The notes: generated from the sequence alone by a model not told the origin. A DNA stretch of 34,165 nt from Candidatus Eiseniibacteriota bacterium (GCA_020431745.1 JAGQHR010000001.1:1-34165), one strand, 5' to 3'; counted from the stretch's first letter, positions 313-1,703 are shown. Program-made: numbers and translations.

Positions 313-683
313 CCCTGGAACGCACGACCACGTTGCACGACGGCGAACGCCGGCCGCTCAACGCGAGCAGGAAGTGCGAGAACTGCGGCAACCGCACGAA
401 GGACAACCGGAGCCGGCACTGCTCGCCCGAGTGTCGCGCGGCAACCGCGAGCAAGCGCACGAAGGCCGAACAGAAGAGGCTCGCCGCGGTGCGGGCCATG
501 CACGAAGAGAACCGCTGGCACATCGGCAAGCGGGGAGCGTACTGCGAGAAGCACGACTGCCGGTGCGAGCCGGAGCACGCGAACGATCGTGGGACCATGA
601 TCTACACCTGCGAACTGTGTTTCGATGAGGCGCTGGCTGCGATGCCGGCGAGCGGGAATGCGTACGAGACGAGCCATAGGTGA
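309..683 (+). CDS. Cys-rich putative zinc-ribbon protein (hypothetical)
   Basis: ATG 309 overlaps the upstream TGA (ATGA). GGAGG at 297-301. CENCG...HCSPEC and CEKHDCRC...CELC cysteine clusters. Internal start chosen from ORF 276-683. Confidence 0.6.
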   Translation: MTLERTTTLHDGERRPLNASRKCENCGNRTKDNRSRHCSPECRAATASKRTKAEQKRLAAVRAMHEENRWHIGKRGAYCEKHDCRCEPEHANDRGTMIYTCELCFDEALAAMPASGNAYETSHR

Positions 684-1006
684 GAAATAGCGTCATACCA
701 ACGGAGCGAGCCATGAAGACTGATTAAACCGTCGATGGGAAAGCGAGCCATTCGAGAGGACAATAACCATACCTTGCAAGCGAGCCGCAGTACGAGACAG
801 AAACCACCGACGATTAGCGAGCCATCGCAGCAGATACAACCAGAACGAGGAAGCGAGCCATGCCGAAAGATAAACCTGCGGGAACAGGAGCGAGCCATGA
901 CGAAAGATGAAGCCGACGAGCTGGAGCGAGCCACATTGTCTGATAGCACTATGAGTCCAGAGCGAGCCACCAATCCTGATCTAACCGCCTTCAAGGAGCG
1001 AACCCA
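668..1006. repeat. Upstream block of 36/37-bp periodic degenerate tandem repeat, core CGAGCCAY, about 10 copies
   Basis: Core starts at 670, 707, 744, 781, 818, 854, 891, 927, 963 and a degenerate 999. Spacings are 37,37,37,37,36,37,36,36,36. Each unit has a second GAT(A/T)AACC-like box about 15 nt after the core and a GGAG/GAAG-type end. Confidence 0.9.
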
Positions 1007-1703
1007 CCTCTACACCGTAGCGTTGCAGTTCCAATCGATCCAACGCGTTCGCGTGGCGCTGCAACTGTCCTGCGAAGGGAGGCCCGAACAAGCCCCAACG
1101 TTCATCCGGGACAAGATGATGGAGATCGAAAAGGATGTCGTTAAATACATGGCAGACCAAGCGAAGATGTTCTCCGTCTGGCCTTGGCTGTCAGACATCA
1201 AGGGCATTGGCCCGCGCATCGGCGGGATGCTCCTTGGCCTAATCGACATTCGCAGAGCCAATACGCCGTCCGCGTTGTGGAGGTACGCCGGGCTCGGCAC
1301 TTCTCCGTGGTGTGTCGAATGCAATACGCGACTCAGTGACCGCGAGACGGTATGCCCGAAATGCGGCACGGCTGCCATCCACAAAGCAGACAGGCCGATC
1401 AAGGGTGAGAAGCTACGCTACAACGCCAAGCTCAAGAAAACCTGCTTTCTGGTAGCGCGGCAGTTCATCATGGCTGGCACCGAGCCATACACCGGGATCT
1501 ACAGGGAGAAGAAGGCGCACTATCTGGGGCGTGGGATGACTGCTGGCAATGCCGACCTTGCTGCGCGTCGAGTGGCTGTGAAGATCTTTCTGGTGCATCT
1601 CTGGGAAGAATGGCGCAAGGCCGAAGGGCTTCCAGTGCGAGATCCCTACGTCAAGACTTACTTGGGACACCAGGACATTATCCCAAGCCGAAATCAGGAA
1701 TAG
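897..1703 (+). CDS. IS110-family transposase C-terminal-domain-like HhH protein with zinc-ribbon insert; no N-terminal DEDD/RuvC-like domain
   Basis: LSDIKGIGPRIGGMLLGLIDIRRANTPSALWRYAGLG resembles the PGIGP...YAGL helix-hairpin-helix core of the IS110/IS116/IS902 C-terminal domain. It is followed by CVEC...CPKC and then RYNAKLKKTCFLVARQFI. Start chosen at ATG 897 (AGGAG 886-890, 6-nt spacer). ATG 735 has no SD and would translate the repeat array. Confidence 0.6.
   Translation: MTKDEADELERATLSDSTMSPERATNPDLTAFKERTHLYTVALQFQSIQRVRVALQLSCEGRPEQAPTFIRDKMMEIEKDVVKYMADQAKMFSVWPWLSDIKGIGPRIGGMLLGLIDIRRANTPSALWRYAGLGTSPWCVECNTRLSDRETVCPKCGTAAIHKADRPIKGEKLRYNAKLKKTCFLVARQFIMAGTEPYTGIYREKKAHYLGRGMTAGNADLAARRVAVKIFLVHLWEEWRKAEGLPVRDPYVKTYLGHQDIIPSRNQE

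Follow-up and report, generated by a model that had tools for sequence, protein, structure and literature searches.

Two arrays of short tandem repeats, at positions 668-1005 and 1682-1877, flank and overlap the gene tasA on a tailed-phage contig, and with a probability of roughly 0.93 they are dual-repeat TIGR arrays that act together with the encoded protein through the TasA-guide mechanism. TIGR (Tandem Interspaced Guide RNA) arrays, described in 2025, are CRISPR-like arrays of dual-spacer guides (PMC12045711). This assignment is based on the homology and fold of the protein, the anatomy of the repeat units, the terminal edges, the conserved pairing of array and gene, and a constraint that acts at the nucleotide level. 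The locus is an unannotated example of an already known TIGR-Tas phage system. The architecture, which the initial annotation had not recognized as a described element, was already on record as a TIGR array with a Tas protein (PMC12045711); the text of that paper contains no mention of this MAG or repeat, and the locus may be among its tas loci.

The window, that is, the whole stretch of 34,165 nucleotides analyzed, belongs to a tailed phage or prophage, as portal, major head, and tail-fibre proteins are encoded on it. Among GenBank phages no close relative was found, and matches were confined to fragments of the primase and methylase. ARAGORN called an unusually long, 85-nt tRNA-Gly(GCC) at 9868-9952, amid long ORFs; it could be a phage tRNA or a spurious call.

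Anatomy of the two arrays

The upstream array (668..1005, + strand) is made up of 9 units, whose edge repeats start at 668, 705, 742, 779, 816, 852, 889, 925, and 961, and the unit lengths are 37, 37, 37, 37, 36, 37, 36, 36, and 36 nt, the same spacings as had been claimed for an octamer, CGAGCCAY. The octamer itself was found exactly at 670, 707, 744, 818, 854, 891, 927, and 963, again as claimed, and in variant form at 781 (CGAGCCGC) and 999 (CGAACCCA). The first edge at 668 is degenerate on its 5′ side (GACGAGCCA), and the terminal edge at 997-1005 on its 3′ side (AGCGAACCC). A second array after the gene (1682..1877, + strand, 5 units), absent from the initial annotation, which thus covered one of the two, begins in the last tasA codons. 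Its edges start at 1682, 1718, 1755, 1794, and 1831, with spacings of 37, 39, and 37 nt among the exact cores, and it too opens with a 5′-degenerate edge (1682, CCCAAGCCG) and closes with a 3′-degenerate half-edge (1869-1877, AGCGCTGCG). Published TIGR arrays are defined by two alternating repeats of 8-12 nt, termed edge and loop, with spacers of ~9 nt between them; they most often comprise 5-15 units, are frequent in phages, and have a 5′-truncated first edge and a 3′-truncated last edge (PMC12045711).

Each unit in the window is laid out as an edge of 9 nt (AGCGAGCCA), a spacer A of 9 nt, a loop, and a spacer B of 9-11 nt; in the regular unit at 816, for instance, spacers A and B are TCGCAGCAG and TCCTCGTTC, respectively. 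Over both arrays (n = 14), five units are 36 nt long, seven are 37 nt, one is 38 nt, and one is 39 nt. The loop repeat, A[T/C]..AACC, is A-rich, 7-9 nt long, and ends in ACC. The second conserved box noted earlier proved real, lying ~17-25 nt past the core start. Several loops are degenerate, among them ATAGCACTA and TGATAATGC, which do not carry the ACC, and some units may therefore be non-functional. The GGAG/GAAG that had been assigned to the end of each unit holds only loosely: its AG belongs to the core repeat, and G precedes this AG in 8/14 units.

The conserved core, AGCGAGCC(A), is longer than the octamer. Exact copies of AGCGAGCC occur 14 times in the 34 kb, counting both strands, and 12/14 fall within 705-1838 at distances of 36-39 nt, namely at 705, 742, 779, 816, 852, 889, 925, and 961 upstream and at 1718, 1755, 1794, and 1831 downstream; the 2 more copies are elsewhere in the window. 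When the sequence was shuffled with dinucleotides preserved, 0/100 shuffles reached the 13 CGAGCCAY matches of the window. Autocorrelation peaked at lags 37, 36, and 73, and in addition at lag 18, the half-period, in support of a symmetry between the two halves of a unit. Divergence among the units limited Tandem Repeats Finder to one part of the array (816-933, period 36).

At 1692-1770, one whole unit of 37 nt is perfectly duplicated in tandem (100% identity, 2.1 copies), across the stop codon of tasA. The duplication looks recent and bears on how TIGR arrays grow. No terminator-like site was detected on the + strand in 1-2300, and no intrinsic terminator after either array, although a rho-independent terminator is part of the dual-repeat TIGR layout; the window gave no Rfam match at the gathering score. 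The stretch from the downstream array to the primase-helicase gene holds a sigma-70-like promoter match (1886-1914, TTGCCC-17-TAGAAT) and, past it, a long GC-rich hairpin (1929-2047, -60 kcal/mol, z = -2.0), likewise with no Rfam match.

The TasA protein and its homologue loci

The product of tasA (897..1703, + strand), listed as MCA9726034.1 for a Candidatus Eisenbacteria MAG, is 268 aa long, has no nuclease domain, and is labelled hypothetical, or 'Transposase' in UniRef. When the family profile was searched against PDB, 9MTY (TasR) was matched with E = 5e-51 and TasH with E = 2e-32, and the next match was IS621 (8WT6) with E = 1e-3, while the single window protein matched the same two entries with 1.9e-15 and 1.4e-5, respectively. 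In 9MTY, Faure et al. (Science 2025; PMC12045711) solved TIGR-TasR in complex with tigRNA and DNA. Foldseek of an AlphaFold2 model of the window protein (pLDDT 86, pTM 0.79) against PDB returned 9MTY first (TM 0.65, prob 1.00), then TasH, and then IS621 and ISCro4. Chi-like sites, promoter arrays, a CsrB-like sponge RNA, anti-CRISPR repeat mimics, and a lambda-O-like origin inside an initiator gene had been considered as well, and were dropped once the PDB match appeared.

The profile alignments take in TasR from residue 111 onward and TasH from residue 74 onward. In the window protein, residues 1-33 are translated TIGR units, with disorder in the model at residues 13-30, followed by a coiled coil (~residues 29-89) and a C-terminal Nop domain. 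Pfam gave a weak Transposase_20 match and Zn-ribbon matches, and no HNH or RuvC domain in the window protein, whose coiled coil is preceded by the 33 repeat-encoded residues; having no HNH/RuvC nuclease domain, the protein is a TasA. The codons 1647..1670 (+ strand) encode YVKTYLGH, in which Y251 and H258 align with Y289 and H296 of SpTasH (YVQEKLGH) at the identical 7-residue spacing, and the Tyr and His columns are (nearly) invariant in the family alignment. Y289/H296 of SpTasH are the residues that process pre-tigRNA (PMC13421893), and the Tyr/His dyad, which belongs to the C-terminal loop of the Nop domain, has been reported as conserved in dual-repeat systems.

A CxxC...CxxC zinc-ribbon insertion (1311..1370, + strand, residues ~139-158) interrupts the Nop domain and is limited to some members of the family. 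Insertions in this TasA clade concentrate at one hotspot of the Nop domain, flanked by the HhH and KGxKLxYN motifs (alignment columns ~307-385), where members have nothing, a Zn ribbon, or up to ~70 residues. In published work, insertions have been stressed for stem-loop systems, not for dual-repeat ones.

[quoted passage not shown] These arrays, beside the gene, are of the kind seen in the window. In L002, ~28 units precede and ~15 follow it, and in L003, 16 units of exactly 36 nt, with a clean 9/9/9/9 parse, extend into it. L005 has ~28 units with a core, GATCGTGCTG, that differs from the window's; L006, L007, and L009 carry downstream arrays, and L008 arrays on both sides of the gene. No array was detected in L001, the sole IMG/VR match (33% identity). 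The edge of the window reads AG..CCA and its loops A[T/C]...ACC, with several degenerate, while in L003 both repeats read AG....CCG, which is the pseudo-symmetry described for TasR. In dual-repeat TIGR systems, such pseudo-symmetry, with a box D-like start and a box C-like end in edge and loop alike, would suit a symmetric dimer.

The edge AGCGAGCC is identical in the window, L002, L003, L006, L007, and L008, despite only 30-50% identity among the TasA proteins. P0003, which is the closest among the full-length relatives whose locus was retrieved (53-54% identity; L005, 45-1130), has the edge ATCGTGCTG, which differs at 4/9 positions, and the loci with AGCGAGCC and with ATCGTGCTG form a natural pair to map repeat specificity. 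In L003, a TnpB-like gene (7112-8158; OrfB_IS605 plus Cas12f1-like TNB) starts 1 nt past tasA, probably by insertion of an IS, so that genes for two different RNA-guided proteins are adjacent there.

In contrast to the arrays, the neighbour genes are not shared: homologues of the Zn-ribbon ORF, the primase, and the methylase were present in no relative locus. As the neighbours are unshared and the array is kept, the pair of gene and array is the conserved unit. The Zn-ribbon ORF (309-683) encodes a Cys-rich protein of 124 aa, has no Pfam or PHROG family, and overlaps with its final codons the first, truncated edge repeat.

These data also bear on a reading of the arrays as duplex-DNA iterons, in which they would be a replication origin or enhancer, or a centromere-like site, for the HhH, Zn-ribbon, or primase-helicase protein. 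Iteron and centromere arrays, such as F sopC (12 x 43 bp) and the octamers of P4 ori/crr, are indeed built of tandem units in phase, each around a short invariant core, and thereby resemble the repeats here; a PrimPol/D5_N primase-helicase gene adjoins the array, and GC content is locally low (54% at the array vs. 65% for the whole window). However, F sopC and the P4 arrays are duplex sites for ParB- or initiator-type proteins, whereas the partner here is close to the RNA-guided Tas proteins solved with tigRNA and retains the RNA-processing dyad, and the two-box unit with its variable gaps of ~9 nt fits the definition of a tigRNA. Further, arrays and gene share one strand in the window and in all seven relative loci, and this strict co-orientation counts against iterons, because an RNA needs the gene's strand and duplex sites do not. 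The analogy with P4 primase and its iterons is unsupported by the neighbours as well, neither a related primase nor the Zn-ribbon gene being found at any homologue locus. Duplex iterons are therefore a very unlikely explanation. Among the roles that the initial annotation had put forward, an array for the adjacent HhH protein alone comes near, in that this protein is the partner, but the homologues of this protein bind the RNA transcript of the array, as guides of ~36 nt, not duplex iterons.

Repeat units within the coding sequence

As had been described, the last codons of ORF 309-683 contain copy 1, and the ORF with the start ATG 897 contains copies 7-10, there at a period locked to 36 nt. 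Copies 3-6 are spread over the three frames of ORF 735-1703, and copies 7-10 alone are in frame from ATG 897. Intragenic dual-repeat units have been reported at the 5′ end of tas, in disordered regions and with the frame preserved (10.64898/2026.09.09.750476).

The in-frame copies raise the question of whether the array is the relic of a protein repeat, that is, an N-terminal expansion of a 12-residue [E/K]RA...P motif that decays and that frameshifts have left as non-coding copies upstream. Translation of the in-frame copies indeed yields 12-aa repeats, in the window and to a greater extent in P0003 and P0011. Nevertheless, the Arg codon of these copies is CGA in 4/4 cases, while CGA accounts for 14/163 Arg codons (8.6%) in the long genes of the window, and CGA is likewise always used in the coding copies of L003; this bears out the earlier suggestion of a DNA-level signal on top of the coding constraint. 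In the non-coding copies, the core is kept perfectly, while the remainder of each unit is diverged. Fixation of the core both at synonymous sites and in non-coding copies rules out a purely protein-level repeat. Arrays also occur 3′ of the stop codon, and the repeat region of the protein is predicted to be disordered, so that a decaying protein repeat is improbable in the extreme and TIGR arrays remain the preferred reading.

The translation start of tasA (887..899, + strand), as read directly from the sequence, is built from TIGR unit 7. Its Shine-Dalgarno (SD) sequence, GGAG, consists of the last two bases of spacer B and the first two of the edge repeat, and its ATG of the last base of the edge and the first two bases of spacer A. 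In terms of the boxes, the SD takes in box D next to spacer B, and the AUG the final part of box C. The initial annotation had proposed that the array is a reiterated translation-initiation cassette, whose GGAG-N6-ATG copies would recruit ribosomes or start mini-ORFs. In line with this proposal, GGAGCGAGCCATG is found exactly at 704 and 888, and the similar GAAGCGAGCCATG and GAGAGCGAGCCATG at 851 and 1791, respectively. However, SD and ATG are both present in only a few units of the window, the ATG relies on spacer bases, which vary, and relatives with other edges, such as AGCGAGCCG or, in L005, GATCGTGCTG, have neither an SD nor an ATG in the repeat. The chance that initiation cassettes account for the array is thus close to nil.

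Proposed function and comparison with known systems

For the TIGR-TasA reading, homology suggests the following course. The arrays would be transcribed on the + strand, in keeping with the co-orientation of arrays and gene in the window and the seven relative loci, and a TasA dimer would bind repeats of both kinds, edge and loop, as counterparts of box C/D motifs. The precursor would then be cut within each edge repeat, probably by the Tyr/His pair of TasA itself, to give guides of ~36-37 nt, and each guide would pair through its two ~9-nt spacers with opposite strands of one DNA site of ~18 bp, as the two spacers of a tigRNA do with opposite strands of a single target (PMC12045711). Since TasA carries no nuclease, binding and blocking are expected instead of cleavage, that is, DNA binding with a transcriptional or replicative block. 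RNA-guided DNA binding or repression is the likely function by analogy with nuclease-free TasA elsewhere, for which RNA-guided DNA binding and repression of transcription have been shown.

Units 7-9 lie inside the tasA frame, and the SD and the ATG stand on either side of the expected cut site, so processing should destroy the tasA message and act as negative feedback. Cutting within the edge repeats by TasA would part the SD from the AUG and break up the reading frame, which holds three units beyond the one that forms the start. We put forward only tentatively that guide maturation and TasA synthesis could be mutually exclusive fates of one transcript, with the feedback built in. For intragenic tigRNAs, maturation has been proposed to be linked to translation (10.64898/2026.09.09.750476), a proposal for which we found no test.

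Targets of the spacers were searched with a model consisting of spacer A, 0-2 nt, and the reverse complement of spacer B, a geometry inferred from the reported 3′ overhangs and cut rule. For self-targets in the window, the best matches had 3 mismatches (n = 2), and three wrong-geometry controls yielded 1, 0, and 1. All arrays against all loci gave 4 matches at 2 mismatches vs. 0 in controls, with ~1.4 expected, which is not significant, and an IMG/VR scan with the target of unit 816 gave 4 matches, about the chance number estimated for an 18-mer. In the window, the relatives, and the IMG/VR scan, no DNA target above the controls was thus found, which agrees with a published remark that targets of 18 nt are lost among chance matches.

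The finding adds a new unannotated TIGR-TasA locus, in a phage of an uncultured Eisenbacteria lineage, and defines a small clade of ~25 proteins in which flanking arrays are usual and, in several members, extend into the 5′ end of the gene. The clade combines an edge, AGCGAGCC, conserved across 30-50%-identical proteins with variable Nop insertions, including a Zn ribbon, and it would be useful for studying guides within coding sequence and the coupling of TasA expression to guide processing. The general understanding of TIGR systems is unchanged by it, and the points of interest, namely the SD and ATG within a unit, the 37-nt units, and the Zn-ribbon insertion, are modest.

The nearest described counterpart is the dual-repeat TIGR-TasA of the type of Flavonifractor plautii FpTIGR (PMC12045711), which likewise has a solo coiled-coil plus Nop protein with no nuclease, a phage context, truncated terminal edges, and a conserved Y/H dyad. 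While published dual-repeat tigRNAs are described as uniformly 36 nt, most units here are 37-39 nt, and their loops are loosely conserved. In addition, the upstream array here enters the coding sequence, with the SD and start codon formed by a unit, the Nop domain bears a Zn-ribbon insertion, no terminator was detected, and there is no ParB-like partner gene. Across the coiled-coil and Nop regions, the window protein is matched best, in sequence and in structure, by TaTasR (9MTY) and SpTasH (9W03, 21KL, and others), which also share its C-terminal Y...GH motif. They possess, however, N-terminal RuvC or HNH domains and cleave DNA, whereas the window protein has neither domain.

A Nop-like C-terminal domain is also common to the window protein and the bridge-RNA recombinases IS110/IS621 (Foldseek TM ~0.5), and this domain explains the 'transposase' label in the databases. 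An IS110-family recombinase was rejected, as the protein has no N-terminal DEDD (RuvC-like) domain and only its C-terminal part aligns with IS621; moreover, IS110/IS621 elements employ one bridge RNA, whereas the array here holds many short guides. For TIGR systems, neither a PAM nor adaptation genes have been reported (PMC12045711). With CRISPR arrays, TIGR arrays share tandem conserved repeats that alternate with variable guide segments and are processed to unit guides, but TIGR repeats are only ~9 nt long and of two alternating kinds, and their ~9-nt spacers are paired on opposite DNA strands.
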